DNA of 64,000 nt, taken from Candidatus Nomurabacteria bacterium. GTDB taxonomy: Bacteria > Patescibacteriota > Minisyncoccia > Phycocordibacterales > UBA9973. The translations under genes were made by a program, and so were the position numbers. A model generated the notes under the pieces. That model was not told the origin of the DNA, ran no database searches, and was given only the letters and a program-made list of their open reading frames with translations. Shown piece by piece: positions 13,537 to 62,671 of the stretch. Each line of letters starts with the position of its first letter. Within the stretch, counting starts at the first letter, position 1. Where the stretch lies: positions 146,400 through 210,399 of the forward strand of contig JAPLXQ010000010.1 of assembly GCA_026395995.1 (NCBI GenBank). The letters are read 5' to 3'.

Positions 13537-13564
13537 TCTTTTATTTTTTTAACTTTTAACCTTA

Positions 13565-13916: not shown

Positions 13917-13917
13917 C

Positions 13918-14262
13918 TCATAACAATCCGCTCTGTTTGGGCGGATTTTGTGTTTGAGTATATTTGAGCCAGCCATTTATCATCTTTGAAATTTCTTGAA
14001 GTTTCAATTCTATTTGTAAATATATAGTTTCGGTAATTATTTTTAATTCATATTCTGTGCGGATAAGTTGTTTCAATGTTTCTGTTTGTAGCCTTGCTTG
14101 TTTAAGTAGAATAATTTTATCTACCTTTGATTCAAGTGATGCACTAATGAGCAACGAAAAACTTTTTAAAAATTCTTTTTCAATATAGTTATGTAGTCCA
14201 AGTTTGTCACGTTTCGGTAATTTATTTCCAATTAAATAAATATAAGCGTATAATTTACGCAT
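13918..14262 (-). CDS. avd: Avd-like accessory variability determinant (basic four-helix-bundle / 23S rRNA IVS protein family)
   Basis: YAYIYLIGNKLPKRDKLGLHNYIEKE fits the KFPKxxxYxL motif of this family; ~114 aa and basic. The ORF is also open back to an upstream ATG at 14322, which would overlap the RT start; the start at 14262 is preferred. Confidence 0.7.
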   Translation of the reverse strand: MRKLYAYIYLIGNKLPKRDKLGLHNYIEKEFLKSFSLLISASLESKVDKIILLKQARLQTETLKQLIRTEYELKIITETIYLQIELKLQEISKMINGWLKYTQTQNPPKQSGLL

Positions 14263-14265
14263 CTT

Positions 14266-15393: not shown

Positions 15394-16113
15394 TGGTTCA
15401 GCGCCGTCGATTGTGTCGAGGACTTTGCCGTCTTTGATGATGAACCCTTTTGGTGTGCCGTTTACTCCAGCCTTACCACCTTCTTCGGTAGAATCGACAA
15501 TGGCTTTTGAATATTTACCAGAATCTAAACATGTATTAAATATGGTTGTATCAAGACCTAAACCTTTAGCAAAAGATTTCAAGTTTTTATCTGCAAAGGC
15601 ACCTTTATTTTCACCTTGTTGATGAGTGAAGAGATAATCATGATATTCCCAGAATTTATTTTGATCACCAGCACAACGAGCTGCTTCAGCTGATTTGACT
15701 GATTCAGCTCCTAGGAAAGCAAAATCTCTTGAGATTAATGAGATTTTTCCATTCTTGATATAAGAATCATTTAAACCTTGCTCAGTCTCACTAAAGAATT
15801 TCCCACAAAATGGACACTGAAAGTCTGTGTACAAAATGACAGAAATAGGGGCATTTATGTTTCCTAGAATTCTATCAGTATTTGAGACAGGGGTGGGTGT
15901 GTCTGTCTTTTTAGCATTATTTTTTCCAGTATCTTCTACTTTAGCTACTTTGTCTGAGTTGTCACTATTACTACCACCTGTCAACCAATAAAAACCTATT
16001 AAAATAGAAGCTGAAATTAAAACTCCAGTTATGATAATAGCGACGGGTGTTGTCAATTCAAACTCTTTTTTATCACCGATTTGGACCACTTTTAAATCTT
16101 CATTATTTTCCAT
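15352..16113 (-). CDS. DsbA-family thiol:disulfide oxidoreductase, membrane-anchored
   Basis: N-terminal TM helix; thioredoxin CPFC active site (DFQCPFCGKF); DsbA-like length. The 3' end overlaps the RT 3' end by 42 bp, convergent. Confidence 0.75.
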   Translation of the reverse strand: MENNEDLKVVQIGDKKEFELTTPVAIIITGVLISASILIGFYWLTGGSNSDNSDKVAKVEDTGKNNAKKTDTPTPVSNTDRILGNINAPISVILYTDFQCPFCGKFFSETEQGLNDSYIKNGKISLISRDFAFLGAESVKSAEAARCAGDQNKFWEYHDYLFTHQQGENKGAFADKNLKSFAKGLGLDTTIFNTCLDSGKYSKAIVDSTEEGGKAGVNGTPKGFIIKDGKVLDTIDGAEPLLMVTGKIDKALQ

Positions 16114-42949: not shown

Positions 42950-43513
42950 ATGATAAATATAAATAATTTAGTACCTGATTTTGAATTAGATGCATACCAA
43001 AATAGTGAAATAAAAAAAATAAAGATTTCTGATTACAAGGGAAAGTGGGTGGTTTTAATTTTTTACCCTGCTGATTTTACATTTGTTTGTCCCACAGAGC
43101 TTGAAGATGCCCAGAAGTATTATGAAGATGTAAAAAAGCTTGGAGGAGAAATAATGAGTATTAGCACAGACACTGCTTTTGCTCATAAGGCTTGGCATGA
43201 TAGCTCACCCGCGATAAGTAAAATACAATATCCAATGTTAGCTGATCCAACTGGGAATATTGCGAGAACATTTGGAACATATATCGAAAATGAAGGACTT
43301 TCTTTACGTGGTACTTTTATTGTTGATCCAGATGGTGTGTTGAAAACAATAGAAATTCATGATAATAATATCGGCCGAAGTGCAAAAGAGATGCTACGCA
43401 AGCTTGAAGCAGCAAAATTTACAAGAGAACATAGTGGAAATGTCTGTCCTGCTAGTTGGGAGCCAGGAGAAGAGACATTAAAGCCGGGTGTAGATTTGAT
43501 TGGTAAAATCTAA
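42950..43513 (+). CDS. ahpC: 2-Cys peroxiredoxin (AhpC/Prx1 family)
   Basis: FTFVCPTEL peroxidatic Cys motif; resolving Cys in GNVCPASW. Confidence 0.9.
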   Translation: MININNLVPDFELDAYQNSEIKKIKISDYKGKWVVLIFYPADFTFVCPTELEDAQKYYEDVKKLGGEIMSISTDTAFAHKAWHDSSPAISKIQYPMLADPTGNIARTFGTYIENEGLSLRGTFIVDPDGVLKTIEIHDNNIGRSAKEMLRKLEAAKFTREHSGNVCPASWEPGEETLKPGVDLIGKI

Positions 43514-46884: not shown

Positions 46885-48408
46885 TTAAGCGAAACCAGGG
46901 AAGAAGTCTATTTTAATATTACTACTAGGTACTCCCATAGATTTGAGAGTATTTTCAAATGCATCCACCATGCTATGTGGTCCAGAAATATAATAAATTT
47001 TATTTAAATAATTTGGAATTTCTTTGGCTATTACTTGGGCATTAATAAATCCAGCTTGCATATTTTCAGTCAATATTTCACCTTTATCTGTAATGGAATA
47101 AACTGTCTTTATTCCAAGTTCTTTTTGGGCTCGATCAAAAACATCCTTATAGGCAATATCTGAAACTTTTTTATTTGAATAGAGTACTGTAATATTTCTC
47201 TTTTCTTTTTTATCTATTAAATATTGAACCATACTTCTAAATGGTGTGACGCCAATACCTCCTGCAATAAATACTAAACCAAAACCTTTTTCTTTTGGTA
47301 AAACGAAGTCACCTGATTTTTGGGCGACAATGATTTCTCCGCCGACAGGCAAGGCTAATAAATGATTTTTAAAACTACTTGGTTCTGGGTAAAATTTTAC
47401 TCCTAAATGAATATCTTGTTCGGTAGGAGAGGAAGCTAGTGTAAAATATCTTCGGTTGCCACGAGAGTCTGGATCACGATGTTTGAGAGTCCATTCCATA
47501 TATTGTCCTGGTTTAAAAGAGAAATCTTGGTCTTTGGTAAAAATAAAATCAAAAGTATCGGTGGCTACTTGGACTCGGTCTTTTAATTTTAAGAATAGTT
47601 TTTCTTTTGGACTAACCAAATAAGCAAAAATATTTCCTATCACCAATGCAAGCTCTGGAGAAGAATAAATTCCACCTATATGTAATGATGGTGTAAATAA
47701 GGCTCCGACTATTATTCCAAAAACAACACGAAGCCATCTTGTAGTAGGTGCGGTGAGTGGCTCGGTAAGCATAATAAAAGCAAAGAAAAAGAAAGCGGAA
47801 TTTGCCATTGTTTTGAATAAAGCTGTCGGAATATTTGAACCTTTTAGCACTGTCAGTATTGTTACTGTTATTAATGCTGAAACAATAAAGCTAAAAAATA
47901 AATCAGCTCGACGAATTTTTCTTATTACCAAAAATCCACCAATCAATACTATTGGTAACATTGTCGGTGTTCCTATCCACCAAGAGGCAAATTGATTGAT
48001 TGTAAAAGCTGTCAGTACGACAGCAAAAGCTGCAGGGTTAAAAAGATGTTTTCGTCCAATTGCAAATATATATTTTGAAGCCATTGCCCAGATAGATGCC
48101 CAAATAGCAAATGGTAAAAATTCTGTATATACACCTCCTTGTGCTGGTGTGATTATAAAAAATAAAATTAAGGCTGTAATGTAGACAGATTCGACATTGG
48201 TCGGTGCGTCATAAGCATAAGAAAAAACCAGATTGGATATCCATGAGATAAATAAAATGATAAGTAATGAAGAAATAAGGTCGAGTGGGGTATAAGGTAA
48301 AAATTTAAATACAGATAATAAAAGAGCAAAAATAAAAAAAGACATAAGAATATAAAGAACTATTCTGTACATTGTTATTTTATTTAAAAAGTTGTCTATG
48401 TGGTTCAT
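46885..48408 (-). CDS. membrane oxidoreductase: polytopic N-terminal domain fused to an FNR-like FAD/NAD(P)-binding module
   Basis: ~8 TM helices, then RRYFTLASSP (RxYS FAD motif) and GGIGVTPFRSM (NAD-binding). NqrF/ferric-reductase-like. Confidence 0.6.
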   Translation of the reverse strand: MNHIDNFLNKITMYRIVLYILMSFFIFALLLSVFKFLPYTPLDLISSLLIILFISWISNLVFSYAYDAPTNVESVYITALILFFIITPAQGGVYTEFLPFAIWASIWAMASKYIFAIGRKHLFNPAAFAVVLTAFTINQFASWWIGTPTMLPIVLIGGFLVIRKIRRADLFFSFIVSALITVTILTVLKGSNIPTALFKTMANSAFFFFAFIMLTEPLTAPTTRWLRVVFGIIVGALFTPSLHIGGIYSSPELALVIGNIFAYLVSPKEKLFLKLKDRVQVATDTFDFIFTKDQDFSFKPGQYMEWTLKHRDPDSRGNRRYFTLASSPTEQDIHLGVKFYPEPSSFKNHLLALPVGGEIIVAQKSGDFVLPKEKGFGLVFIAGGIGVTPFRSMVQYLIDKKEKRNITVLYSNKKVSDIAYKDVFDRAQKELGIKTVYSITDKGEILTENMQAGFINAQVIAKEIPNYLNKIYYISGPHSMVDAFENTLKSMGVPSSNIKIDFFPGFA

Positions 48409-48409
48409 A

Positions 48410-49174
48410 TTATTGTTTTGTATAATTGTTAAAATTTGTTGTCATTGTGGCTATACCATTTTTATCTATCATATATGCTTCGAAACCATTGAGTTTTTCT
48501 ATAAAATAGATCCCTTGTTTTCCCATCGCATATGCCGCTGTAGCAAATCTGTCTGCTTCAAAAATATTTGGTCCAATGACAGTGATACTCGATATATCTT
48601 CTATTGTATCATTTTTATCTTTTGGATTATAAATATGATTACCTCGAACATAGTTTCCAGAAGTCGCTATACCTTCACCACTGACATATATTTTTTTTAT
48701 AATTTCTCTTTTTTTACTGAAAGGATTTTGAATACCTATACACCACGTATCACCATTTTCATTTTTACCAGAAGTCTGAATATCACCACCTGCTTCGACT
48801 GTAAAATTTTTTACACCGTGATTTTTTAATATTTCACTAGCATTAAAAATAGACCAACCTTTTACTAGTCCAGATGGGTCATAAGTTCCATCTGGAGTCA
48901 CTATATCAAAATATCCATCTGTTAATTTCTTTGTTTCTTCTGAAAGCTCAAAAACTTTTTTCATATCTTCACTCATTCCTGCCTGCGCAGGCAGGTTAGC
49001 TTCTTTAATTTTATTATTTATTGCTGTAATTTCACTAGTGTCTTTATAAGTGCTAAATTTACTATCAACATATTTAAAGTAATCAAAAGCTTCATTAAAA
49101 AGTTCTTGCCTAGCTTCTTGATTATTAATTTCAATAATAATGGGAGTTCCCATGATAATTTGTTCCTGTTTCAT
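48410..49174 (-). CDS. apbE: FAD:protein FMN transferase (ApbE family)
   Basis: N-terminal IMGTPIII, ApbE-like length and C-terminal Mg/FAD-binding region. Confidence 0.65.
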   Translation of the reverse strand: MKQEQIIMGTPIIIEINNQEARQELFNEAFDYFKYVDSKFSTYKDTSEITAINNKIKEANLPAQAGMSEDMKKVFELSEETKKLTDGYFDIVTPDGTYDPSGLVKGWSIFNASEILKNHGVKNFTVEAGGDIQTSGKNENGDTWCIGIQNPFSKKREIIKKIYVSGEGIATSGNYVRGNHIYNPKDKNDTIEDISSITVIGPNIFEADRFATAAYAMGKQGIYFIEKLNGFEAYMIDKNGIATMTTNFNNYTKQ

Positions 49175-49181
49175 TTTATAT

Positions 49182-49718
49182 TTAAGCTTGAGCTAAAGCT
49201 GATGCTAAAGATTGACGATAGGCTTCACTAGTGTATGAGGCACCAGAAACAGTGTCGACGTTTGAGTCTTGTAAAGCAATAGCTTCACTGATTAAGTAGG
49301 GCATAGCATAGTTGTTTATTCTAGTTGAGTTTCCACCTCGTGGATGGTCTAGGAATTGAACATCAGCTATTTTGCCACCAGAAATAACAACCTTAACTTG
49401 AACATAGCCATATGATGCATCAACAGAGTCACCAGTGTAGGTGCCATTTCTGTATTTACCAGTATTTATTACTGGTGGAGGTGGAGTAGGAGTTGGTTTT
49501 GGAGTGGGTGTTGGGGTGGTTTTTACTTCAGGTTTAATAATAGCTGGAACAACTGGTTCTATTACAATTTGGTTGTATTGTGGAAGATTTAAAGCAACTG
49601 GCGGTTTGTTTGGTCTTGGTTTTAAGGCGACAGGGGCTTCAGCTCCCAAAATACGCACATGCAATATGTATGCGCCGAAGCTAAATATTAATAATGATGA
49701 TAAAATTATTTTTTTCAT
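49182..49718 (-). CDS. secreted FMN-binding-domain protein (ApbE substrate) with a Pro/Thr-rich linker
   Basis: Signal peptide/TM, PTPTPKPTPTPPPP linker, flavinylation motif DTVSGASYTS (Dxx[ST]GA[ST]). Confidence 0.65.
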   Translation of the reverse strand: MKKIILSSLLIFSFGAYILHVRILGAEAPVALKPRPNKPPVALNLPQYNQIVIEPVVPAIIKPEVKTTPTPTPKPTPTPPPPVINTGKYRNGTYTGDSVDASYGYVQVKVVISGGKIADVQFLDHPRGGNSTRINNYAMPYLISEAIALQDSNVDTVSGASYTSEAYRQSLASALAQA

Positions 49719-49770
49719 AAAACTTTTTATATTCTATAGATTGAAAATGAATTCTTCATGAAGTTGTTTT

Positions 49771-50679
49771 TTAATCATCATTTTCTGATCTATTAAAATC
49801 TTCATTTTCAATATCGTTACCATGTTTTTCAAAGTTGTTATCATCTTCAATACCACGTTTTATTGTGTTTGAAAGCATTAATAATTTTGCTGAATTCGTA
49901 GTATTTATAGATGTTTGAAATTTTTCTATAGAATTTGTGTAGTCTATGCTTGTGATTAATATTTTACCTTCTTCTATTGAAGTTTCAGCTGAAGATAATT
50001 TGCTGCTTATTTGATTTTGTATATTTGTAGATAAATTTATTTTTTCTTTTTGATAACTAAGTTTTGCAGAATTTAATAAATTTTCTGCAGCCCTTTGCTT
50101 GTCGAGCGCTAAAACAGAATTGTCTATGGTTTGTGCGGGGATAGATGTATCTAATGGTATTACTCCGACATTTGTCTCTAGGTTTTGATTATCAGTATTG
50201 ATTTTTTTAGTAGCTTCATCTATGTTTGAAATAAGTTTTTGGTTTTCTATTTTAGTATTTTCATTAAGAACTACCTCTGTCGAAAGATTCTCTAAAACAC
50301 TTTTATAAGCGTTGAGGGATGCTTGAAGTCTGATATTTAAATCAGATGAATTTACCGATTGGTTTTTTTGTAAAGAGAGTGCATTTACATTTGTATTAAA
50401 TTCTGTAATTTGACTTGATATTTGATTTTGGAGGTCTAGTCTAGTGGCCTCGTCTAGATTGTTATTGGAAATTAATTTTTGAGCTTCATCTAGTCGTCTC
50501 TCGACTATACGTTCTTGCCATTCAGTTTTTTCTTCTTTCGTAAACGCAAAAACTCCAGCGACCGGCTCATTGATATGAACTTTTACCCCATACAAAAAAT
50601 CTCCGGGAATAGACTTTTCGGCTATAGTCGCCGTACCTCCTGTGATAGCTATCACTAATGCAATAATAAATGGTATCAT
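49771..50679 (-). CDS. hypothetical membrane-anchored coiled-coil protein
   Basis: N-terminal TM helix, long Q/N/S-rich coiled coil. Confidence 0.3.
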   Translation of the reverse strand: MIPFIIALVIAITGGTATIAEKSIPGDFLYGVKVHINEPVAGVFAFTKEEKTEWQERIVERRLDEAQKLISNNNLDEATRLDLQNQISSQITEFNTNVNALSLQKNQSVNSSDLNIRLQASLNAYKSVLENLSTEVVLNENTKIENQKLISNIDEATKKINTDNQNLETNVGVIPLDTSIPAQTIDNSVLALDKQRAAENLLNSAKLSYQKEKINLSTNIQNQISSKLSSAETSIEEGKILITSIDYTNSIEKFQTSINTTNSAKLLMLSNTIKRGIEDDNNFEKHGNDIENEDFNRSENDD

Positions 50680-50719
50680 ATCTAAATTATAGCATTAAAA
50701 GCTATTTTATTACAAAATT

Positions 50720-52984
50720 ATGAATACAAAAAATTACAAAGTAAAAGGAATGCATTGTGCGAGTTGTGCCAGTATTATCGAGCGCACTATGAAAAAAATT
50801 GATGGTGTATCAGAAGTTTCCGTAAACCCCGGTACTGAGAGTGCTAAAATTTCTTATGATGAAAGTAAGACTAATCCAGAAAGTTTAAACACAAAACTCG
50901 AAATACTTGGATATTCTTTAGGTTTAGAAAAACCACTAACTAGGACTGTCCTAGTTAGTGCTAAAGATGAAAAGTTGACTGAACTTAAATCAATGAAGTT
51001 AAAAATTATTTCAGCAATTCCTCTTGCAGTGATAAGTATTTTTGTAATGGCTTGGGATATTTTAGCTCAGTTTAAAACACAGTATAGTATGCCGTTGGTT
51101 TGGTCAGAATTTTTTCATCATCTTTTGCCTTTAATGGCGACATATATGCTCTTTGTTGTAGGTAAGCCTTATCTACAAGGTTTTTATCGTTTCCTTAAAA
51201 CAGGCAAAGCAAATATGGATACATTGATCGGGCTCGGCACGAGTGTCGCTTATATTTACAGCTTCATTGTCGGAGCTTTTGAAGAAACATTACTTAAAGA
51301 TTTTCCTAATGTTGGCGTGACGTATTTTGATGTGACGATTATTGTCATCACTTTTATCGCCCTTGGAAAATATTTGGAAACTCGTTCAAAGTTAAAAACA
51401 GGTGATGCAATAGAAAAACTTTTAAACTTACAAGCAAAAACTGCGCTCGTCGTTCGTGCGGGAAAAGAAATAGAAATTTCTGTGAATGAAGTTGTTCATG
51501 GAGATATTATTATTATCAAACCGGGAGCAAAAATTCCCGTGGACGGAACCATAGTAGAAGGGAATTCTTTTGTCGATGAATCAATGGTGACAGGTGAACC
51601 AATGCCAGTGAAAAAAAATATTGGAGATGTCGTAGTCGCAGGGACGATAAATACGACAGGCACTTTTAATTTCAAAGCCACAAAAGTCGGTAATGAAACA
51701 CTTCTAGCACAAATTATAAAAATGGTTGAAGAAGCGCAGAGTAGTAAAGCACCGATTCAAGCCATCGCTGATAAAATTTCGGCAATCTTTGTACCAATTG
51801 TTTTAGTAATTGCATTTATCACGCTCGGAGCTTGGCTTTTCTTTGCTTCAGGTCCGCTTGGTTTTTCACAAGCACTTTCTTTTGGGCTTATGTCATTTGT
51901 GGGCGTGCTGGTAATTGCTTGCCCTTGCGCGCTTGGCCTCGCTACACCGACGGCGATCATCGTCGGCGTTGGTAAAGGTGCCAAAGAAGGAATTTTAATT
52001 AAAGACGCAGCGACACTCGAGAAGCTCCATAAAGTAGATACTGTTATCGTCGACAAGACAGGTACGATAACAATCGGCAAGCCAACGCTCGTTGATATAG
52101 AAATTTTGTCGGCTGTAAAAGAGCCAGAATTTATTTCAATCATTGCATCATTAGAAAAAAAGTCAGAACATCCTATTGCTCACGCAATCCTTGAATTTGT
52201 GAAGGAAGGTCCTTCACAAATTTATGAAGTTTCAAATTTTGAAAACATAGAAGGTAAGGGAATCAAAGGAACAGTAAATGGAATTGAATATTTTGTCGGT
52301 AATGTGAAAATGATAAAAGATTTAGGAATTAATTTTGATGCGACAAAAATAGAACAATATACAATGCAGGGTAAAACTCCAGTCATTCTCGCGACAAAAG
52401 ATTCAGTCATTGGTTTTTTGACTGTCGCTGATGAAGTTAAAATTGAATCAAAACAAGCCATTACAGATTTGCACAAACTCGGCATCAAAGTAATTATGCT
52501 CACCGGCGATGATGAGAAAGCTGGAAAATATATGGCGTCACTCGTCGGCATCGATGAAGTCGTGGCGCATGTGATGCCAGTGGACAAGCTCGCGAAGATA
52601 AAAGAATTGCAAAATAGCGGGCGCGTCGTCGCTATGGCCGGAGACGGCGTGAACGACGCGCCCGCCCTAGCCCAAGCCGATGTCGGCATTGCTATGGGCA
52701 CAGGCACCGATGTGGCTATCGAGTCGGCAGGAATCACACTTCTCAATGGAGATATTTCCAAGCTCGTAAAAGCGATCAAACTTTCAAAAATCACCATGCG
52801 CGGAATTAAACAAAATCTTTTCTGGGCTTTCATATATAATATAGTAGGCATCCCGCTCGCCGCCGGCCTTTTCTACCCAATCTTCGGCTGGCTCCTGAAC
52901 CCCGTCTTCGCCGGCCTCGCAATGGCATTCTCCAGCGTTTCCGTCGTGTCGAATTCACTTAGAATTAAAATTAAAAAAATATAA
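50720..52984 (+). CDS. copA: copper-translocating P1B-type ATPase
   Basis: HMA domain [15 protein letters not shown] motif ([11 protein letters not shown]), DKTGT phosphorylation site, [10 protein letters not shown]. Confidence 0.92.
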
Positions 52985-52986
52985 TT

Positions 52987-54036
52987 ATGAAAAAATACAC
53001 ATTACATGTTTCGGGGACACATTGCGCATCGTGCAAGATATTGATTGAAGATATTTTGATGGATTCGACAAGCTCACCACAAGCCGAGCAAATTTTAGTT
53101 AAAAGTGCAAAAGTAGATTTAAAAAAAGAAATAGTTGAAATTGAAACTGATAGTGAAAAACCAGTTGAGGAATTAGTAAATATTTTAAATGAAAAAGTTA
53201 AAGGGAATAAATATACTCTTTCACTAGAAGAAATCGTTAGGCAAGACCTAACGATTTCTGACGATGTGATTTGGAAAGCGATACCTATTGGTTTAGTTTT
53301 TTTAGTATTATTTTTTCTTCTACAAAAATCAGGACTGCTCAATCTCGGCATTGGTGGCAAGACGACACCGACGACGAGTTTTATTATCGGAATTATCGCT
53401 TCGCTTTCGAGCTGTCTCGCAATCGTCGGCGGGCTGGTCCTTTCTTTATCTGCCAAAGTCGCGCAGGATGACCAAGGCAATCCAAAGTCTACAAAGAAAC
53501 CTTTCATCCTTTTCCACGCAGGGCGATTGCTCGGCTTCGCGGTACTCGGCGGAGTGCTCGGCCTCGTCGGCAAAGCAATTGGAATAAATTTTATTTTCTC
53601 AGCAATTCTCGGAATTATTGCATCTGTCGTGATGATCTTGCTCGGCATAAATTTGCTCGGCATTATCAAGAAAAATAAAATTACCTTGCCAAGCGGAATT
53701 TTTTCCTTTTTTCGAAAAGCTGAACACACGACTTTAGCACCGCTTCTCATTGGTATCGGCACCTTTTTCTTGCCTTGCGGTTTCACTCAATCAATGCAAG
53801 TCTCGGCACTTTCTAGTGGATCTTTTACATCTGGATTTTTAATTATGTTAGCTTTTGCTCTCGGCACATTGCCAGTGCTCGCACTTCTTTCTTTCGGTTC
53901 TGTATCATTCGCACATTCCAAGAATGCACCACTCTTTTTTAAATCTGCGGGAGTGATAGTCCTAGGTCTCGGAATCTTCGCACTCTTGGCAGGGCTGGCA
54001 GGCCTCGGTATTATCAATCCATTATTTAATATATAA
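52987..54036 (+). CDS. heavy-metal-associated (HMA) domain fused to a CcdA/DsbD-type transmembrane domain
   Basis: GTHCASCKILIE HMA motif; 6-8 TM helices with paired Cys (SSCLA..., FLPCGFTQ). Confidence 0.65.
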   Translation: MKKYTLHVSGTHCASCKILIEDILMDSTSSPQAEQILVKSAKVDLKKEIVEIETDSEKPVEELVNILNEKVKGNKYTLSLEEIVRQDLTISDDVIWKAIPIGLVFLVLFFLLQKSGLLNLGIGGKTTPTTSFIIGIIASLSSCLAIVGGLVLSLSAKVAQDDQGNPKSTKKPFILFHAGRLLGFAVLGGVLGLVGKAIGINFIFSAILGIIASVVMILLGINLLGIIKKNKITLPSGIFSFFRKAEHTTLAPLLIGIGTFFLPCGFTQSMQVSALSSGSFTSGFLIMLAFALGTLPVLALLSFGSVSFAHSKNAPLFFKSAGVIVLGLGIFALLAGLAGLGIINPLFNI

Positions 54037-54039
54037 AAT

Positions 54040-54453
54040 ATGAATACAAATAAAATTATTTCAATAGTTGTCACAGTCGCACTCTTGGCCGGCATTATTT
54101 TTATCATTACTAAAAGTCCAAAATCTAAAAATGAAGAAGGTGGAATATATGGTCAATCAGTTGTTTCAAACGTAACAATGAAAGACGGAGTGCAATATAT
54201 AACTATTGATGCGACAAATGGTTACAATCCAAAAATTACAAATGCCAAAGCTGGTATACCAACAAAATTAATTATGAAAACCAATGGAGCTTTTAGTTGT
54301 TCTTCTGCTCTTGTAATTCATTCATTAAATTATCAAAAAATGTTGCCCCAAACAGGGGAGACAGAAATAGATATCGGCATACCAAAAGCCGGCGAGCCAT
54401 TACAAGGCATTTGCGGAATGGGAATGTATAATTTTTCTGTGAATTTTAATTAA
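54040..54453 (+). CDS. small secreted protein, possible metal-binding (Cys/His/Met-containing, cupredoxin-like?)
   Basis: Signal anchor; FSCSSALVIHS and GICGMGMY motifs. Speculative. Confidence 0.3.
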   Translation: MNTNKIISIVVTVALLAGIIFIITKSPKSKNEEGGIYGQSVVSNVTMKDGVQYITIDATNGYNPKITNAKAGIPTKLIMKTNGAFSCSSALVIHSLNYQKMLPQTGETEIDIGIPKAGEPLQGICGMGMYNFSVNFN

Positions 54454-54497: not shown

Positions 54498-55169
54498 ATG
54501 AAGATTCTTTTGGTGGAAGACAATCAAAAATTGGCTGAAAATATTAAACAAGGGCTCGTGCAAGAGAGCTATTCTGTCGATATTATTGAAGATGGAGCTG
54601 TAGCGGAAAAGCGGATTTTAATGAGCGTGACTGATTATGATTTAGTTATTTTAGATCGAATGCTTCCAAATAAAGACGGCGTTTCTATTTGTAAAGAATG
54701 GCGTGAAAAGGGAATTATTATTCCTGTGATAATGCTCACAGCGCTCGATACAGTCGAAGACAAAGTCGATGGTCTCGAAGCTGGTGCAGACGATTATTTA
54801 GCCAAACCTTTCGCCTTCAAAGAATTGTTGGCTCGAATTCACGCATTGCTTCGCCGACCACAATTAATTTTTCCAGAAATGCTTACTTTTGGAAAATTGA
54901 ATTTAAATACAAAATCCAGAGTGGCATATTTCAAAGAAAAACCATTGTCGCTGACATTGAAAGAATTCATGGTCCTAGAATATTTAATGCGTAATCCAAA
55001 TAAAGTAATTACTCGAGATACATTGTATTCACATGCTTGGGATTTTGCCGATTCATCATTTAGTAATACGGTCGACGTACATATTAAAAATTTAAGAAGA
55101 AAAATTAACGACAATGGAAAAATTATCCAAACAGTTCGAGGGGTGGGTTACAAAATGGAAGACAGATAG
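54498..55169 (+). CDS. OmpR-family response regulator
   Basis: Receiver domain (D at LDRMLP), winged-helix C-terminus (RVAYFKEKPLSLTLKEF, GVGYKM). Confidence 0.9.
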   Translation: MKILLVEDNQKLAENIKQGLVQESYSVDIIEDGAVAEKRILMSVTDYDLVILDRMLPNKDGVSICKEWREKGIIIPVIMLTALDTVEDKVDGLEAGADDYLAKPFAFKELLARIHALLRRPQLIFPEMLTFGKLNLNTKSRVAYFKEKPLSLTLKEFMVLEYLMRNPNKVITRDTLYSHAWDFADSSFSNTVDVHIKNLRRKINDNGKIIQTVRGVGYKMEDR

Positions 55170-56124
55170 TTTTTTGATTGCCAGAATTAAACTAACCTTT
55201 TTTTATTTTCTGACGGCTTCTGTAATTTTAATTGTGGCTAGTTCTATTTTATATCGAACTTTTCTTTTTAATATTACTGAATCAGTTAATTTGAATGTCG
55301 ACGATGAAGATGTCGCTCAAGTTTTAGTCGATAGAACACAAGATATTTTATTGAATAAATTTATTACGACAGATAGTTCTATTTTGATTGTAATTATTGT
55401 TTGCGGATTTTTATTAACCAAGAAATCTCTAGACCCAATTCGAGAAAATATGAAAAGACAAAAGAGGTTTATTGCTGATGCTTCTCACGAATTGCGTACA
55501 CCTATTGCTATCGCCATTTCAGGGCTGGAAGTGGCTATGAGTAATAAAAATTTTAATATAGATATTGCCAAAAAAACACTTTCAAATACATTAGAAGAAA
55601 TGCAAGATCTTTCTAAGTTAACCAATAATTTACTAGATGTGACTAAATATAATGTTAGTAGTTCATCTGTGTACGAACCTTTGCAAATCAATGAAGTCAT
55701 TTCACAAGCAGTAGAAAAAATGAAAGCTTTAGCTAAAGCAAAAGAAATAGAAATAAAAAATGAAATTAAAGAACAAGTAAATGTTTTAGGAAATAAAACA
55801 GAAATTGAGCGAATTGTTTATAATATTATAAACAATTCACTCGCACATACTCCTAATGAGGGGATTGTTACTATTTCTGATTTTATCAATAAAAAAGAGT
55901 ATATTATTTCAATTACTGACAATGGTTCTGGTATTTCAAAAGAAAATTTAGATAAAATTTTCGATCCATTTTTTCAAGGCGATACATCAAGGAATAATGG
56001 TGGGGCAGGGCTCGGTTTAACTCTTGCTAAAAAAATAATTGAAAATCACAAAGGAAAAATAACCATAAAAAGTGAATTAAATAAAGGTACAAACGTAATA
56101 ATCAAACTCCCTATTTCTTCATAA
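55114..56124 (+). CDS. sensor histidine kinase
   Basis: 2 TM helices, H-box ASHELRTPIA, N/G1/G2 boxes (NNSLAHTP, DNGSGI, GGAGLGL). The annotated start overlaps the regulator by 56 bp; the true start may be downstream. Confidence 0.85.
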   Translation: MEKLSKQFEGWVTKWKTDSFLIARIKLTFFYFLTASVILIVASSILYRTFLFNITESVNLNVDDEDVAQVLVDRTQDILLNKFITTDSSILIVIIVCGFLLTKKSLDPIRENMKRQKRFIADASHELRTPIAIAISGLEVAMSNKNFNIDIAKKTLSNTLEEMQDLSKLTNNLLDVTKYNVSSSSVYEPLQINEVISQAVEKMKALAKAKEIEIKNEIKEQVNVLGNKTEIERIVYNIINNSLAHTPNEGIVTISDFINKKEYIISITDNGSGISKENLDKIFDPFFQGDTSRNNGGAGLGLTLAKKIIENHKGKITIKSELNKGTNVIIKLPISS

Positions 56125-56740: not shown

Positions 56741-56768
56741 AAACACCTATAATTAGGTGTTTTTTTAT
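56741..56768 (+). terminator. rho-independent terminator
   Basis: aaacaccta-taat-taggtgttt then ttttatt. Confidence 0.55.
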
Positions 56769-56810
56769 TTGTTTAGTTTTTATTATGTTATAATTACTAT
56801 AAACATATAT

Positions 56811-58382
56811 ATGGAAAAACTTCCACCAAAAAAATTTAAAGCAAAAGTTGATTCTATCGAGACCATTGCAAAAGGTGTAAAAAAAATAACATTTAAAATA
56901 AATGATAATTTTAATTTTTTAGTCGGCCAATATGTTTGGGCTGAAATTCCAGAATTAAAAATCAAAGACCCAAAAGGTAATCGTCGCGCATTTTCTATTT
57001 TTAATTTACCGAATAATGATAACAAGATTTCAATTGTTGCCAGGACCAGTGAAAGTGGATATAAACAAGAATTATTTGCTTTAAATGTTGGAGATGAAAT
57101 ATATGGTCATGGACCATTTGGTAGTGCTTTTGTTGCTGATTATCATAAAGATACAAATCTTATTTTTATTGCTGGTGGTGTGGGTATTGCTCCTTTTATT
57201 CCAATAATTCAAAATATAAAATCTCAGTCTTTACCAATAAAGACTTTCTTGGTTTATTTAAATAAAGATAAAGAAAACACACCATTTGTGTCTGAATTAA
57301 AGTCTTTGAAAAATGACAATTTTAATTACGAGATTGTTTATGGTGATTTTTCTTGGGACCTTGTTAAAAATTCTTGTGTTAACTTGGGAAAGGAAATTAA
57401 ATGGTTAATTGCTGGTCCACAAGGTCTGGTGGATCAGGTCTATTTAGAATTAGAAAAGAGTGGAATTTCTAAATTAAATATGGTCTTTGAAAATTATTAC
57501 CCAACATTAAAAAATAATTTAACAAAAAAAATAATAGAAGATCAGCTTTTTGTTGAAAATGTTTTTGCTAAAGCAATTCAAAATTCTACAAACCATACTG
57601 TCATTACCGATGTTAATGGTATTGTTTTATATGCTAATAAGGCTGCTCAAGATATTACAGGCTATTCTCTTGAAGAAATTTTAGGCAATACACCACGTCT
57701 TTGGGGAGGGATGATGAGTCATGAATATTATGTTGATTTCTGGAAGAAGAAAATGTCAGGAGAACCATTTCAGGGTGAAATAATGAATCGTAGGAAGAAT
57801 GGTGAGATTTATTATACAGTAGCGCATATTGCTCCGATTTTATCATCAGACAAGACTATTATAGGATTTGTCGGTACAGAAGAAGATATTTCGATTCTTA
57901 AGAAAAAAGAACAAGAAATTATTGATAAATCAGTAGAATTGGATACATTTTTTAGTACAGCAAACGACCTCATGTGTATTGCTGGTATTGATGGATATTT
58001 TAAAAGAATTAATCCAAAATTTAAAGAAATCTTATCTTATGAAGAAAAAGATTTATTAGGATCTGTTTTTATTAGTTTTGTACACCCAGAAGATGTCGAA
58101 TATACAAATAATATTATAAAAAAATTATCACAAGGTGAAAAGATTGTTAGTTTTAAAAATAGATTTCATAAAAAAGATGGTTCATATGTCTGGCTTGAAT
58201 GGAATGCTGCACCTAACGGTGAATACTTATATGCTATTGCTCGTGATATTACAGAAGATATTAAAAATAAAGAAATTATGGAAGAAAAAAATGCTGAGCT
58301 TGAAAAAATGAATAAATTTATGATTGGAAGAGAGTTAAAAATGATAGAATTAAAAGAAGAAATTAATAAATTAAAAAATTAA
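56811..58382 (+). CDS. cytoplasmic sensor: FNR-like flavin/NAD-binding reductase domain, two PAS domains and a C-terminal coiled-coil peptide; no output domain
   Basis: RRAFSIFNLP and GGVGIAPFIPI (FNR-like); two PAS folds (ITGYSLEEILG..., ...MCIAGIDGYF...). Start moved to the Met at 56811 because 56757-56810 overlaps the upstream terminator. Confidence 0.6.
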   Translation: MEKLPPKKFKAKVDSIETIAKGVKKITFKINDNFNFLVGQYVWAEIPELKIKDPKGNRRAFSIFNLPNNDNKISIVARTSESGYKQELFALNVGDEIYGHGPFGSAFVADYHKDTNLIFIAGGVGIAPFIPIIQNIKSQSLPIKTFLVYLNKDKENTPFVSELKSLKNDNFNYEIVYGDFSWDLVKNSCVNLGKEIKWLIAGPQGLVDQVYLELEKSGISKLNMVFENYYPTLKNNLTKKIIEDQLFVENVFAKAIQNSTNHTVITDVNGIVLYANKAAQDITGYSLEEILGNTPRLWGGMMSHEYYVDFWKKKMSGEPFQGEIMNRRKNGEIYYTVAHIAPILSSDKTIIGFVGTEEDISILKKKEQEIIDKSVELDTFFSTANDLMCIAGIDGYFKRINPKFKEILSYEEKDLLGSVFISFVHPEDVEYTNNIIKKLSQGEKIVSFKNRFHKKDGSYVWLEWNAAPNGEYLYAIARDITEDIKNKEIMEEKNAELEKMNKFMIGRELKMIELKEEINKLKN

Positions 58383-58399
58383 CTAGAATAATTATTCTT

Positions 58400-60475
58400 A
58401 TGGAAGAACATAAAATAATAAATAAAAAAATACTATTTCTCAGTAAATCTAATATTTTAATATTTAGTATTATTTTGTTTAGTATTATTTGGATTTTTTT
58501 TCTAGCTCCACAAATTTTAAAAATTCCAAAAGATTTTTCTTATAAAGCTGATGTTATATCTGTCGATAATCTATATGATAAAAGTAGTAATGAATTTAGT
58601 GGGGAGAGTTACTCAAAGACCAAATTCTCATACGAAACCATTTCGAGTAGTGATAATAACTTAATGATAAAGAATAGTTTTGATGTAAAAACTATTGATG
58701 GAAAGCAAATTTTTAAAACAGATAGATTGTACGGTATCAACTCTTTGACAGGCGAACATGTAAAAGGGTTAGGGGATAAAGATAGAGAAGGTTATTTATT
58801 TGCTCCTCGTGGAATAAAAAAGGGTCAATCTTATACATATTGGCATGTTGATGTTAATACCCCAGCAACGATGAATTTTGTTGGTGAGGAGAATTTGTAT
58901 GGTTTAAATGTCTATAAATATGAGACTAATTACGGGGGAGCTATAGATCAAACTGCTAATTTTGTTTTTTTGCCGGAAGTCGGTAAGACTCTTGGTGTAA
59001 AACTTTTATCTAAAAATTATTTATGGATTGAACCAGTTTCCGGTTATCTAGTTAAACAGCAAGATATGTCTACTGATTATTATTTTTATGATCTTAAAAC
59101 TGGTGAGAAGTTGTACCCATATAATCAATTTTCAAATATTTTTTCAGAAAAAAGTACAGAAGAGCATACCTTAATTGCTAAAAAGTTAAAGACTGAGATT
59201 ATTGTTGCGAATTACCTTATCCCAATAATTTTATTTATTTTGGCTATTATAATGTTAGCATTAAAACTTAGCTATTTTGATAGAATTCTTACTTTCGTTA
59301 AGAGTAATTTTATATTAATTTTTGTTACAATTGTAATGTTTTTGGGTAGTTTCACTGGTTATTATTTTTTAGTTAATGGTTTTGATAAAGAAAAACAAGT
59401 TTCTTTAGAAACTCAATCAATAGATATAACTGAAAAAATATTAAATAAAACATCTAATTATTTACGTTTACCATTAAATGGACGCGCCTTGTTTAATGCT
59501 AGTGTAAGTGTGGAGAGAAATGAATGGTCTGCTTTTGTAAAGTCTTTAGATTTATTACAAAACTATCCAGGAGTTCAAGGTTTAGGTTTTCTAAAAATAG
59601 TGTTACCTAATGAAAAGAATCTTTTTGTTCAATCTGTAAAAAAAGAAGGTTTTTCTGATTTTAATATTATCCCAGTAGGAGATAGAAATATATACACACC
59701 TGTAATTTATTTGGAACCATGGACACCTAGAAATATCAGAGACTTAGGGTTTGATATGTTTTCAAATAAAATTACAAGAAACTCTATAATTAAAGCCAGA
59801 GATTCTGGAGAAATTTCAGTTTCTTCAAAGGTAGCGCTTCTTCAAGATAATGGAACTGGTTCACAATTTGGTTTTTTTGCTTTTTCACCAGTCTATAAAA
59901 ATAATTCCAAGGTAGGCACTGTAGAAGAAAGAAGAAAAGAAATAATTGGCTATACTTATTATTCATCTATGATAAAAGATTTTTTAACAAGTATTTTTAA
60001 TAATCAGAAATATGATTTAGATTTTAAAATTTATGATGGCCTAAAGATTAGCAATGAATCACTTATTTATGATTCTGGTAATGGATCTATTTCTAATAAT
60101 GTTTTTTTTCACAAAGTAGAAACAATCTATTTAAAAGATCATCCTTGGACGATTGAATATGTAAATTCTTCAAATTACCAAAAACCTTTAATAGATAAGG
60201 TTATTCAATATTCAGTTCTTTTTGGAAGTTTACTTGTTACTTTTTTAGTTTTTAGTTTAATTTTATCTATTTCTAAATCAAAAGAAAGTTCTGTTTTATA
60301 TGCAGCTTCTTTGACCAAAGATTTAGAAGCAAAACAGGATGAGTTAAAGAAAAATAATCAAACCTTAAAAGAAAAATTAAATGAAGTTGATAAAATGAAT
60401 AAATTGATGATAGGTAGAGAGCTCACAATGTTAGATCTTAAAAAGGAAATTGATAAATTAAAGAGAAAAATATGA
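58400..60475 (+). CDS. membrane sensor with a periplasmic domain and a CHASE-like domain, ending in the same C-terminal coiled-coil peptide; no output domain
   Basis: TM segments at ~20-40, ~265-330 and ~610-630. CHASE-like pattern (NEWSAFVKSLDLLQNYPGVQGLGFLKIV ... GFFAFSPVY). C-terminus DKMNKLMIGRELTMLDLKKEIDKLK. Confidence 0.55.
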   Translation: MEEHKIINKKILFLSKSNILIFSIILFSIIWIFFLAPQILKIPKDFSYKADVISVDNLYDKSSNEFSGESYSKTKFSYETISSSDNNLMIKNSFDVKTIDGKQIFKTDRLYGINSLTGEHVKGLGDKDREGYLFAPRGIKKGQSYTYWHVDVNTPATMNFVGEENLYGLNVYKYETNYGGAIDQTANFVFLPEVGKTLGVKLLSKNYLWIEPVSGYLVKQQDMSTDYYFYDLKTGEKLYPYNQFSNIFSEKSTEEHTLIAKKLKTEIIVANYLIPIILFILAIIMLALKLSYFDRILTFVKSNFILIFVTIVMFLGSFTGYYFLVNGFDKEKQVSLETQSIDITEKILNKTSNYLRLPLNGRALFNASVSVERNEWSAFVKSLDLLQNYPGVQGLGFLKIVLPNEKNLFVQSVKKEGFSDFNIIPVGDRNIYTPVIYLEPWTPRNIRDLGFDMFSNKITRNSIIKARDSGEISVSSKVALLQDNGTGSQFGFFAFSPVYKNNSKVGTVEERRKEIIGYTYYSSMIKDFLTSIFNNQKYDLDFKIYDGLKISNESLIYDSGNGSISNNVFFHKVETIYLKDHPWTIEYVNSSNYQKPLIDKVIQYSVLFGSLLVTFLVFSLILSISKSKESSVLYAASLTKDLEAKQDELKKNNQTLKEKLNEVDKMNKLMIGRELTMLDLKKEIDKLKRKI

Positions 60476-62274
60476 GTTTTTTAAATAAAAAAGATAATAC
60501 TTTCTTAAGTACCCCGATTACATCTATGCGATGTAGGCTTTTAAAAGTTCTTTCTTATATAGCAATCGTAGTCTTATTCGTTTTTGGTTTTTTGAATATA
60601 TTTCCACAAAATAATTTTTTTGTTGGTTTTGTACAGTTGGTTATTGGTGTATTTTTAATGTTAAATGTACTTTTTTTAAAAAAGTTTAATAATTTTAAAT
60701 TAGCCTCTTTAGTTTTTATCTTTACTTTGTTTTTTATAATGATTTTTCTATTTTGTACTGGAGGATATCAAGACACTGGTATTTATTGGTTTTGTTTATT
60801 TCCGTTAATTGTTTACTTTTTACGTGGTAGAAAATACGGTTTATATTTTAGTATACTTTTTATATTAACTATTTTGTTTATCTATATATTTAAGGGGTCA
60901 TTTGTGCCGTATAATTTTATTCAAATTAGACAGGTATTATCTAGTTTTATTACAATATCTTTGATTACACATTTTTATTTATCAATAGAAGAAAAAGACT
61001 CAGAGTCTTTAGAAGAAAACGAAAATAAATTAAAATCTATAAATCAAAAGTTGCAAGATGAAATACAGAATAGTGATTTAATTAAAAAAGAGTTATCGGA
61101 AAACATTTTAGATTCTGAAAATACCAAAAAAGCAGTTTTAAATATTCTAGAAGATGTTCAGGACGAAAAGATAAAAGTAGAGAAAATTTCTCAAAAATTA
61201 ACTTTGGCTACAAAGTCTGCAAAGATTGGTGTGTGGGAATGGGATATTGTAAAAAATAAATTAAGCTGGGACAATATAATGTGTGTTCTTTATGGTATAA
61301 AACCTGAAGATTTTAGGGGTATTTATGAGACTTGGTTAGAAAAATTACACCCAGATGATAAAAAGCATGCTAACGAAGAAATGCAAACTACTTTAAGTGG
61401 CGGTAAAGATTTTGATACAGTTTTTCGTGTTATTTGGCCAAATCAAGAAATTCATTACATTAAAGCTTATGCATCCTTAGAATCTGACATTAATGGTAAA
61501 CCAATAAAAATGGTTGGAATCAATTTTGATGTTAGTCATGATAAAGAAGTAGATATTGAAAAAACAGAATTCGTTTCTTTGGCTTCGCATCAATTAAAAA
61601 CACCGGTCGGTGCTTTAAATTGGAATTTAGAATTATTACTTGGAGGTGATTATGGAAAAATCACAGAAAAACAAAGAGAAATTATTTCTGATATGTATAA
61701 AATGAACCAAAGGATGAATGATTTAATAAATAGTCTTTTGAATGTTTCTCGTATTGATCTTGGTGTTTTTATTATTGAACCAGTGCCGACTAATTGGGTT
61801 GATATGTGCGATGAAGTTCTTGCTGAATTGGATTCTAAAATAAAAATCAAAAATCATATTATTACTAAAAAATATATTGGTGATTTGGCTACTATTCCAG
61901 CTGACCCAAAGCTCTTGAGAATAATTTTTCAAAACTATATTTCTAATGCAGTCAAATACACCCATGGTAGTGGTGTAATAAATATTATTGTTGAAAACAA
62001 AAATGATGAAGTTTTAATTAGTGTTTCCAATAATGGTGATTCTATTCCAGAAAAAGAAAAAAGTAGAATTTTCAGTAAATTATTCAGAGCTAGTAATGCT
62101 CAAGAACAAGACCCAGATGGAAATGGTCTTGGTCTTTATATTGTTAAAAAGATTGCTGAAAATGGCGGTGGTAGAGTTTGGTTTGAGTCTAGAGAGGGCA
62201 AAGATACAGTCTTTTATGCTTCTTTTCCTGTTTCTGGTATGATTAAAAGAGAGGGTGAAAAGGTATTAGTTTAG
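60472..62274 (+). CDS. sensor histidine kinase (5-6 TM N-terminal domain, PAS, HisKA, HATPase)
   Basis: PAS (IGVWEWDIVKNKLSWDN), H-box LASHQLKTPV, N/G boxes (NAVKYTHGSG, DPDGNGLGLYIVKKI). Confidence 0.85.
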   Translation: MSFLNKKDNTFLSTPITSMRCRLLKVLSYIAIVVLFVFGFLNIFPQNNFFVGFVQLVIGVFLMLNVLFLKKFNNFKLASLVFIFTLFFIMIFLFCTGGYQDTGIYWFCLFPLIVYFLRGRKYGLYFSILFILTILFIYIFKGSFVPYNFIQIRQVLSSFITISLITHFYLSIEEKDSESLEENENKLKSINQKLQDEIQNSDLIKKELSENILDSENTKKAVLNILEDVQDEKIKVEKISQKLTLATKSAKIGVWEWDIVKNKLSWDNIMCVLYGIKPEDFRGIYETWLEKLHPDDKKHANEEMQTTLSGGKDFDTVFRVIWPNQEIHYIKAYASLESDINGKPIKMVGINFDVSHDKEVDIEKTEFVSLASHQLKTPVGALNWNLELLLGGDYGKITEKQREIISDMYKMNQRMNDLINSLLNVSRIDLGVFIIEPVPTNWVDMCDEVLAELDSKIKIKNHIITKKYIGDLATIPADPKLLRIIFQNYISNAVKYTHGSGVINIIVENKNDEVLISVSNNGDSIPEKEKSRIFSKLFRASNAQEQDPDGNGLGLYIVKKIAENGGGRVWFESREGKDTVFYASFPVSGMIKREGEKVLV

Positions 62275-62293
62275 ATTATATAAAAATAATTAT

Positions 62294-62671
62294 ATGGAAG
62301 ATAAAAAAACAATCTTAATTGTAGAAGATGAAAAATCTATTAGTGGTGCTTTGAGTGATAAATTAAACAATGAAGGATATACGATCCTTCAAGCTAAAAA
62401 CGGTGAGGAGGGTCTAAAAATAGCCTTAAAGGAACATCCAGATTTGATGCTAGTTGATATTTTAATGCCTAAGATGGATGGTATTAAAATGGCGAAAGAG
62501 TTGAGAAAAGATATTTGGGGTAAGACTGCAAAGATAATTATTCTAACTAATGTTACAGATTTGAATCAAGTTCAAGAGGTTATGGATAGTGAGGTTTTTG
62601 AATATTTAACAAAGAGTAATGTCACTTTAGAATATCTTACAAATAAAGTTAAAGATTTTTTAAATAGATAA
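62294..62671 (+). CDS. single-domain response regulator (CheY-like receiver)
   Basis: ILIVEDE, phospho-acceptor D in LMLVDILMP, KIIILT..., K in YLTKS. Confidence 0.85.
   Translation: MEDKKTILIVEDEKSISGALSDKLNNEGYTILQAKNGEEGLKIALKEHPDLMLVDILMPKMDGIKMAKELRKDIWGKTAKIIILTNVTDLNQVQEVMDSEVFEYLTKSNVTLEYLTNKVKDFLNR

Follow-up and report, generated by a model that had tools for sequence, protein, structure and literature searches.

Positions 46885–50679 of the 64,000-nucleotide stretch of Candidatus Nomurabacteria DNA analysed here (the window, to which all coordinates refer) hold four tightly spaced, co-oriented open reading frames (ORFs) on the minus strand. These encode a DUF5667 protein, an FMN_bind protein akin to NqrC and RnfG, a compact ApbE-family FAD:protein FMN transferase (FAD, flavin adenine dinucleotide; FMN, flavin mononucleotide) and a protein in which an RnfD/NqrB-like membrane domain is fused to an FNR-type module for FAD and NAD(P)H (Table 1). 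All four have Pfam matches that exceed the curated thresholds. Judged from its sequence, the locus is probably an ordinary member of the NQR/RNF-like class of flavinylation-associated electron-transfer systems, with two subunits that form the complex and a flavin transferase of their own encoded beside them. The initial annotation of this DNA had described three minus-strand genes in the range; all three are confirmed by Pfam, although the DUF5667 gene has to be added as a fourth. Its proposal that ApbE, FMN_bind and FNR-type NAD(P)H modules are united in one operon is borne out by Pfam and by the lengths of the gaps.

Only 7 nt separate the FMN_bind gene from the ApbE gene, and 1 nt the ApbE gene from that of the fusion protein; these three genes are therefore considered to form one operon. 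The DUF5667 gene, 52 nt ahead of the FMN_bind gene, is probably co-transcribed with this triad, and a consensus scan revealed no terminator-like site between the two genes or between the later genes of the operon. Promoter and terminator scans gave no more sites than were obtained with shuffled sequence, so that the boundaries of the operon are drawn from the tight gene spacing alone.

Table 1. Position and assignment of the genes and protein features discussed in the text.
Feature	Position	Strand	Evidence or remark
Membrane/FNR fusion, 507 aa	46885..48408	-	PF00175 + PF03116
Fusion, N-terminal part: 10-helix RnfD/NqrB-like membrane domain, aa 1-266	47611-48408	-	
Fusion, C-terminal part: FNR-type FAD/NAD(P)H module, aa about 270-507	46888-47599	-	
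Compact ApbE-family FAD:protein FMN transferase, 254 aa	48410..49174	-	PF02424, E=6e-40
FMN_bind protein, 178 aa, NqrC/RnfG-like: anchor, Pro/Thr linker, C-terminal FMN-binding domain	49182..49718	-	PF04205
N-terminal transmembrane anchor of FMN_bind protein, aa 3-21	49656..49712	-	Hydropathy 1.96-2.18
Flavinylation motif D155-T-V-S-G-A-S161 of FMN_bind protein	49236..49256	-	Sequence reading
DUF5667 protein, 302 aa, N-terminal transmembrane helix and long helical region	49771..50679	-	PF18915, E=9e-11
copA (CopA P-type ATPase)	50720-52984		Divergent from operon
OmpR-type response regulator	54498-55169	+	Downstream of copper island
Short-loop histidine kinase	55114-56124	+	Downstream of copper island

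The NQR/RNF-like systems were defined by an N-terminal PF03116 domain and a C-terminal PF00175 domain in a protein encoded in a cluster with ApbE and FMN_bind; 127 such clusters were originally reported, and the candidate phyla radiation (CPR) was named as a main host (PMC8238504, Méheust et al. 2021, eLife). In the window, the ApbE (PF02424) and FMN_bind (PF04205) genes lie immediately upstream of the gene for the fusion protein, where the definition asks for a distance of at most five genes. It should be noted that this type of cluster has already been catalogued and its general interpretation already published; the locus itself is no discovery. What can be added to the catalogue is that the family is much larger, that the cognate ApbE never has a signal peptide, and that two-component systems often lie nearby. 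The low count of 127, together with the reported under-representation of flavinylation in the CPR, probably arose because the screen of Méheust et al. required a predicted signal peptide.

The fusion protein shows 100% identity to one from a Candidatus Nomurabacteria metagenome-assembled genome. It has thousands of relatives in the databases, the best 120 of which are almost all from Patescibacteria; PF00175 and PF03116 are both present in 106 of these, the other 14 having PF00175 and no precomputed PF03116 match. With the membrane domain alone as query, 756 cluster representatives (50% identity) are retrieved at E<=1e-10, and 372 when the limit is E<=1e-30; their length is mostly about 500 aa, which corresponds to the fused form. 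The system is thus far more widespread than first reported, being common in Patescibacteria and amounting to hundreds of clusters at 50% identity. A cluster scan restricted to one genome per species gave 80 loci, which span Patescibacteria, Chloroflexota (Ktedonobacteria, Anaerolineae), Alphaproteobacteria (Mesorhizobium, Kaistia, Phyllobacterium), Spirochaetota and Actinomycetota (Microbacteriaceae). The gene order of the window (FMN_bind, ApbE, fusion) is found at about 57 of the 80 loci and in five phyla, the genes usually overlapping or nearly touching. The conserved cluster comprises these three genes only. A DUF5667 gene occupies the same position in a single relative, at the closest locus (L001), and is therefore not regarded as a core component.

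The fusion protein

The C-terminal module is recognised as NAD_binding_1 (PF00175, E=1.3e-14), and residues 280-503 give strong NCBIfam matches to flavohaemoprotein, PaaE and NqrF; the closest solved structure by sequence is that of NqrF (E=2e-15). In the membrane domain, Pfam reports NQR2_RnfD_RnfE (PF03116) at residues 146-265 (E=7.9e-9; 35.7 bits, cut-off 27.7), the NCBIfam matches to RsxD, RnfD and NqrB are weak, and a phmmer search against the PDB sequences returned a single marginal match, to RnfD (E=7e-4). The structural matches of the fusion protein are to the NqrF, RnfD and NqrB folds.

Comparison with RsxD of E. coli suggests what has been lost from the membrane domain. The C-terminal alignment produced by hhalign is strong. 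In a local alignment, residues 98-143 of the fusion protein fall on RsxD 91-142 through a common FNPA motif, and residues 144-153, a conserved A-S-W-W-I-G-T loop, occupy the place of RsxD 143-226, which is the periplasmic stretch bearing the FMN-linked Thr187 (SQATPLD). The fusion protein thus appears, from sequence comparison, to be without the roughly 75-residue periplasmic loop of RnfD that bears the covalent-FMN threonine. The deletion is inferred because the N-terminal match, weak in itself, is collinear with the strong C-terminal alignment, and because the difference in length of the membrane part (265 aa, against 352 aa in RsxD) fits. A MAFFT L-INS-i alignment of membrane domains with E. 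coli RsxD mis-registered the N-terminal half, and the local alignment and hhalign collinearity were used instead. The covalent-FMN threonine of NqrB and RnfD is not conserved, the T187 region of RsxD being without counterpart, and no [ST][GQ]A[ST] motif occurs anywhere in the fusion protein. Ser142, in the A-[ST]-W-W loop, was considered as a cryptic equivalent of the RnfD Thr187 site and rejected: the loop aligns to RsxD 140-142 and 221-223, not to SQATPLD.

No cysteine is invariant among 23 homologues of the fusion protein; no Fe-S or haem site is therefore apparent, and transfer by flavins only is the likely route. The loop charges (GRKH, RKIRR and KEKLFLKLKDR inside, NQFASWWIGT outside) give, by the positive-inside pattern, a predicted topology with both termini in the cytoplasm, as in NqrB and RnfD, which would place loops 4 and 6 and the FNR module on the cytoplasmic side and the WW loop outside.

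The flavinylated subunit and its transferase

ApbE recognises the motif D-x-x-[ST]-G-A-[ST] (PMC12052999). The FMN_bind protein of the window (E=1.1e-8; 36.1 bits, cut-off 22) has D155-T-V-S-G-A-S161 near its C-terminus, as the initial annotation had pointed out, and the motif occurs just this once in all window ORFs of at least 60 aa; Ser161 is accordingly the predicted site of FMN attachment. In its homologues, the C-terminal motif is DxxSGAT in 32 of 54, DxxSGAS in four and DxxTGAT in three, the rest including close variants. The Pro/Thr linker that had been described, TTPTPTPKPTPTPPPP, is likewise present after the hydrophobic segment, and in homologues it is a low-complexity Pro/Thr/Ser/Ala stretch of very variable length, from about 4 to 170 aa. 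The signal peptide was only half right: a hydrophobic N-terminal segment does follow MKK, but it resembles a retained anchor rather than a cleaved signal. The sole A-x-A has proline after it, which leaves no good signal-peptidase site, and the anchor pattern MKKxxLSxxVxxxFxxY is conserved from Patescibacteria to Mesorhizobium; together these suggest a retained helix, as in NqrC and RnfG. In 47 of 51 homologues the anchor has more positive charge on its N-terminal than on its C-terminal side, and the Chloroflexota members have strongly basic N-terminal extensions; the orientation is accordingly predicted to be N-in, C-out.

The ApbE of the window matches solved ApbE and FmnB structures (E=2e-18 to 7esa, Listeria FmnB), residues 5-92 aligning with FmnB 26-110 and residues 98-240 with FmnB 163-314, and it keeps the catalytic-region motifs ATSGNY, NHIYNP and EADRFATA. 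About 50 residues of the FmnB helical insert are missing, as is the whole leader. The protein starts MKQEQII-MGT, with only 7 residues ahead of the MGT core and no cysteine lipobox, and its maximum 17-aa hydropathy is 0.76; E. coli ApbE, taken as a positive control, has 41 residues ahead of the core, the lipobox FFVGC and a hydropathy of 2.68. By sequence, the 59 ApbE ORFs found adjoining fusion genes form two classes: the first measures ~247 aa and begins near MGMP, the second ~290 aa with a start near FEAIGTxW. When each ORF is taken at its maximal length, 41 of them still have no more than 12 residues before the core; in the other 18, the hydropathy of the upstream stretch never exceeds 1.48, and this stretch mostly overlaps the preceding gene.

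The divergent ApbE of ~290 aa, starting near FEAIGTxW, marks a second cluster sub-type, which is found in Saccharibacteria, Uhrbacteria and Microbacteriaceae (loci L037, L042, L043, L045, L048, L056, L057, L060, L070, L072, L073 and L077). In the three FMN_bind partners that were fully read (L048, L056, L057) the motif is S-G-S-S, not S-G-A-[ST]. At one further locus (L076), where no ApbE was detected, it is G-G-S-S.

Several points weigh against the assignment as an NQR/RNF-like system. A recognisable export signal is found in none of the 59 cognate ApbEs, be they from Gram-negative, Gram-positive or CPR bacteria, yet the sole candidate substrate is predicted to face outwards. The domain searches proposed by the initial annotation recovered FMN_bind, ApbE and NAD_binding_1 but not FAD_binding_6, which was not reported for the fusion protein at E<0.01; support for the FAD half of the FNR module consists of the NCBIfam alignments and the fold match. 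The alignment of the N-terminal half of the membrane domain to RsxD scores about 1.6 standard deviations above shuffled controls, which alone is not significant. Finally, literature searches found no biochemical or experimental study of any NQR/RNF-like member.

Because ApbE is leaderless while the domain it would modify is predicted to lie outside, the published topology must be incomplete or wrong in at least one respect. The location of ApbE in the NQR/RNF-like system is not discussed in PMC8238504 or PMC10979944, nor was a discussion found in literature searches. A dedicated ApbE that is always leaderless contradicts the assumption that flavinylation is extracytoplasmic, and the resolution that we prefer is that FMN is attached in the cytoplasm, before the C-terminal domain crosses the membrane. 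The Sec channel tolerates small side-chain adducts. Moreover, ApbE modifies seven-residue peptide tags, preferably at a protein terminus, and so needs no folded substrate (PMC12052999). If flavinylation is indeed cytoplasmic, the cell would need neither an FAD exporter nor a secreted transferase. Motifs for twin-arginine translocation (Tat) were sought because Tat could export a protein after it has folded and received its flavin; none was found on the FMN_bind proteins, with one ambiguous case in a spirochaete (L067). Ranked second is the possibility that the FMN_bind domain is actually cytoplasmic, and third, again as a possibility, non-classical export of ApbE. Fusion of FMN_bind to ApbE by frameshifting or readthrough, as a route for the export of ApbE, was rejected because the two genes differ from locus to locus in relative frame and in spacing.

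A bolder proposal, to which we would give a small though appreciable chance, is that leaderless ApbE loads FMN on the C-terminal Ser/Thr of the FMN_bind protein before its C-terminal domain is threaded through the membrane, and/or that the RnfD/NqrB-type domain has kept the ability to translocate ions, which would make the two-subunit complex a minimal NAD(P)H-driven Na+/H+ pump. Were the pump to be real, it could energise the membrane of CPR bacteria, which are without respiratory chains.

The second of the resolutions above can be extended to the entire flavin relay, which would then face the cytoplasm: the FMN_bind domain would be flavinylated inside and shuttle electrons between the FNR module and the RnfD-like domain, which it would meet on the cytoplasmic side; this membrane domain would be a quinone-site, ion-channel or anchoring module and not an outward electron conduit. 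The leaderless ApbEs would be accommodated at once, as would the flanks of the anchor in the window protein itself, which are equal in net charge (+2 and +2), and there are known cases of a cytoplasmic ApbE acting on an FMN_bind domain in the cytoplasm, such as that of the Klebsiella fumarate reductase (PMC12052999). The flank charges of the 47 homologues and the basic extensions in Chloroflexota are, however, against such an arrangement, and the low-complexity linkers of 20-170 aa are typical of extracytoplasmic tethers. CPR bacteria, moreover, are not known to make quinones. An AlphaFold-multimer model also docks the subunit outside, at the site emptied by the missing flavin loop of RnfD (PMC10979944). 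We regard a wholly cytoplasmic relay as rather unlikely.

Copper genes, regulators and the rest of the window

The operon is divergent from copA, with 40 nt between the start codons. The copper island (50720-54453) consists of CopA, an HMA-DsbD_2 fusion, in which a thiol-reductant transporter of CcdA/DsbD type carries a domain for binding metal, and a small cupredoxin-like protein. Between the starts of the DUF5667 gene and copA, the 40-nt region 50680-50719 contains the inverted repeat ATAGC-N7-GCTAT, a possible operator, and the minus-strand operon has a -10/-35-like site, with an extended TG, at 50715-50686. In the closest relative (L001), genes for HMA-DsbD_2 and a cupredoxin are again found as a pair near the cluster, at 677-2125.

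On the strength of this adjacency a copper-linked role in metal reduction had been suggested, and one can envisage a dedicated reductase for Cu(II) or another metal that works with the products of the island. Besides the divergent arrangement itself, the 4-6 kb that separate the HMA-DsbD_2 and cupredoxin genes from the cluster in the closest relative, and a true CopA upstream of the cluster at L029, would be in keeping with this, as would the VIT1 and NRAMP genes beside some clusters. Yet P-type ATPases occur near the triad at only six of the 80 loci, of which about three have a heavy-metal-type look (L029, L032, L033), and most clusters are without a metal gene nearby. CopA exports Cu(I), and the reduction of Cu(II) outside the cell would raise its toxicity, so that no obvious logic pairs the two activities. 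Where relatives do have links to metals, these point to Fe/Mn transporters, not to copper: VIT1 flanks the cluster at four loci (L032, L033, L038, L047; Pfam-confirmed on L032, E=2e-67) and NRAMP at three (L011, L048, L057; Pfam-confirmed on L057, E=2e-84), and VIT1 had been noted in six NQR/RNF-like clusters (PMC8238504). The copper-linked suggestion is therefore weak, and a dedicated metal reductase tied to the island seems to us doubtful. Adjacency to Fe/Mn transporters fits a role as iron reductase for that minority of members; a metal-related role is plausible for a subset of clusters, with Fe or Mn more likely than Cu. The copper genes beside the operon are better read as a sign of possible co-regulation than of cupric reduction. 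MsrA/MsrB pairs are found near the triad at three of the 80 loci.

The response regulator and histidine kinase that follow the copper island have their best Pfam and NCBIfam matches in the RppA/RppB and heavy-metal regulator and kinase subfamilies, all below the curated cut-offs. A pair of this OmpR type occurs within 8 kb of the triad at about 22 of the 80 loci and flanks it directly in several Patescibacteria, in Mesorhizobium, where the two are convergent, and in Spirochaetota, where the pair lies upstream on the same strand; from this recurrent adjacency, the pair in the window is a candidate regulator of the operon. No common signal can be inferred because the sensor domains of the kinases differ, the window kinase having a short loop of ~45 aa and that of Mesorhizobium a PhoQ/PmrB-like periplasmic domain. 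A MacB-like ABC ATPase lies near the triad at 25 loci and a membrane-fusion protein at 12, frequently in Patescibacteria, and these genes may simply travel with the two-component system.

The description of the cluster as a minimal redox system is a fair one: the rest of the window is housekeeping in character (rpoB/C, S2, EF-Ts, DnaG, sigma-70, Mur ligase, MreB/C, TGT, UvrABC and others), with no Rnf, Nqr or respiratory genes among the listed Pfam matches. A peroxiredoxin (AhpC/TSA) and a DsbA-like thioredoxin-fold protein are encoded at 42950-43513 and 15352-16113, which implies that the organism has some capacity for coping with oxidative stress and for thiol redox chemistry outside the cytoplasm. 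A signalling cluster (56757-62671) lies downstream of the two-component system. It includes a 541-aa protein of unusual architecture, in which an FNR-like FAD/NAD module at the N-terminus is joined to two PAS domains, an output domain being absent, along with a PorA+CHASE protein (58400-60475), a MASE6-PAS histidine kinase (60472-62274) and a stand-alone receiver (62294-62671). At 12820-15393 there is a diversity-generating retroelement. Its target ORF (12820-13536, plus strand) contains the variable repeat (13414-13534), which the template repeat (13796-13916, 121 nt) matches with 89% identity. The two differ at 13 positions, and at every one of them an adenine of the template is replaced by G, T or C in the variable repeat. 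At 13918-14322 an ORF reported on the minus strand has a bAvd-like match (PF22296), and the reverse transcriptase (RVT_1, E=3e-25) is at 14266-15393 on the plus strand.

Electron path and comparison with known systems

Starting from what is observed, namely the domain identities, the fold, the operon structure, the motif and the conservation of the triad across phyla, we infer the cofactors, the direction of electron flow, the acceptor and the site of flavinylation along the following lines. NAD(P)H would give hydride to FAD in the cytoplasmic FNR module at the C-terminus of the fusion protein, and the electrons would cross the membrane via one or more non-covalent flavins in the RnfD/NqrB-type domain. 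This step can be likened to the RnfC-RnfD-RnfG branch of RNF (or the riboflavin-FMN branch of NQR) run outward, with the FNR module in place of RnfC. The electrons would then reach the FMN that ApbE, drawing on FAD, is expected to have joined by a phosphoester link to Ser161 of the FMN_bind subunit, anchored in the membrane and facing outwards; this flavin may occupy or visit the site vacated by the deleted RnfD loop. From there they could be passed to an extracytoplasmic acceptor, candidates for which are Fe(III), other metal ions, O2 and soluble flavins. Nomurabacteria and other CPR bacteria are generally taken to live by fermentation and to have no electron-transport chain. An exporter of electrons from NAD(P)H that consists of just two proteins would help them to regenerate NAD+, to acquire metals or to cope with oxygen.

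The NCBI PGAP label on the fusion protein and on many of its homologues is ‘RnfABCDGE type electron transport complex subunit D’; those of JGI are ‘ferredoxin-NADP reductase’ or ‘glycine betaine catabolism B’. All of them mislead, the protein being an RnfD-like/FNR fusion near which no further Rnf subunit is encoded, and the NCBI name could lead to Rnf complexes being wrongly inferred in metabolic reconstructions of the CPR. This name and the PF03116 match might be taken to mean that the product is RnfD of a canonical Rnf complex, which is highly improbable. The scores fall far short of the equivalog cut-offs (25 bits against 207 for RnfD, TIGR01946, and 24.9 bits against 415 for RsxD), no RnfA, B, C or E is among the listed Pfam matches for the window, and the FNR fusion, the missing flavinylated loop and a conserved cluster with only FMN_bind and ApbE all argue to the contrary. 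A NOX or ferric-reductase type of transmembrane protein with haem b, as would go with the ferric-reductase membrane domain that the initial annotation had proposed to look for, can be practically discounted: Pfam finds no Ferric_reduct match and gives NQR2_RnfD_RnfE in its place, the fold is that of RnfD/NqrB, and the invariant residues include a single histidine where bis-His pairs would be expected.

The model published for the NQR/RNF-like system already has cytoplasmic oxidation of NAD(P)H supplying electrons to a carrier with covalent flavin at the opposite membrane face, just as the initial annotation had proposed for this locus (PMC8238504, PMC10979944). In the AlphaFold-multimer model of the Ktedonobacter complex, the NqrC-like subunit docks directly on the NqrB-like subunit, in which the flavinylation threonine of NqrB/RnfD is not conserved, and the covalent flavin of the former lies near an apparent non-covalent flavin site of the latter (PMC10979944, Huang et al. 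2024). No essential difference from the window locus is evident: the covalent-FMN threonine is missing from the NqrB-like part in both, and CPR bacteria are among the main hosts already on record. What is particular to the window is the attached DUF5667 gene and the divergent copper operon.

Relative to the RnfC-RnfD-RnfG branch of RNF (8ahx, 7zc6), the window locus is without RnfA, B and E and the Fe-S clusters, has the fused FNR module in place of RnfC, and apparently lacks the FMN-Thr187 loop of RnfD. A circular electron path is impossible since there is no ferredoxin branch. As regards NqrB, NqrC and NqrF of the Na+-NQR (7xk3, 8a1t), the 2Fe-2S domain of NqrF, the subunits NqrA, D and E and the covalent FMN of NqrB are all missing, and no quinone site is evident.

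The system of Listeria for flavin-based extracellular electron transfer (FmnB, PplA, Ndh2, EetAB, DmkA), with which the locus had first been compared, resembles it in pairing an ApbE-family transferase with a surface FMN_bind protein carrying covalent FMN, and the common purpose would be to bring NADH-derived electrons out of the cell. The analogy holds for this pairing but not for the transferase itself. Listeria FmnB is a secreted lipoprotein, whereas neither the window ApbE nor its counterparts in the 59 related clusters have a signal peptide or lipobox. In Listeria, moreover, the membrane is crossed via Ndh2 and demethylmenaquinone, in contrast to the RnfD-FNR fusion proposed for this role here, and PplA, a lipoprotein, has two FMN_bind domains; genes for EetA, EetB, Ndh2 or demethylmenaquinone synthesis are not among the Pfam matches for the window. 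Closer in one respect is the ApbE of the Klebsiella pneumoniae fumarate reductase, which is also free of a signal and encoded beside its FMN_bind substrate (PMC12052999). The Klebsiella substrate is, however, a soluble cytoplasmic enzyme, whereas that of the window, with its N-in, C-out anchor, is predicted to be extracytoplasmic.

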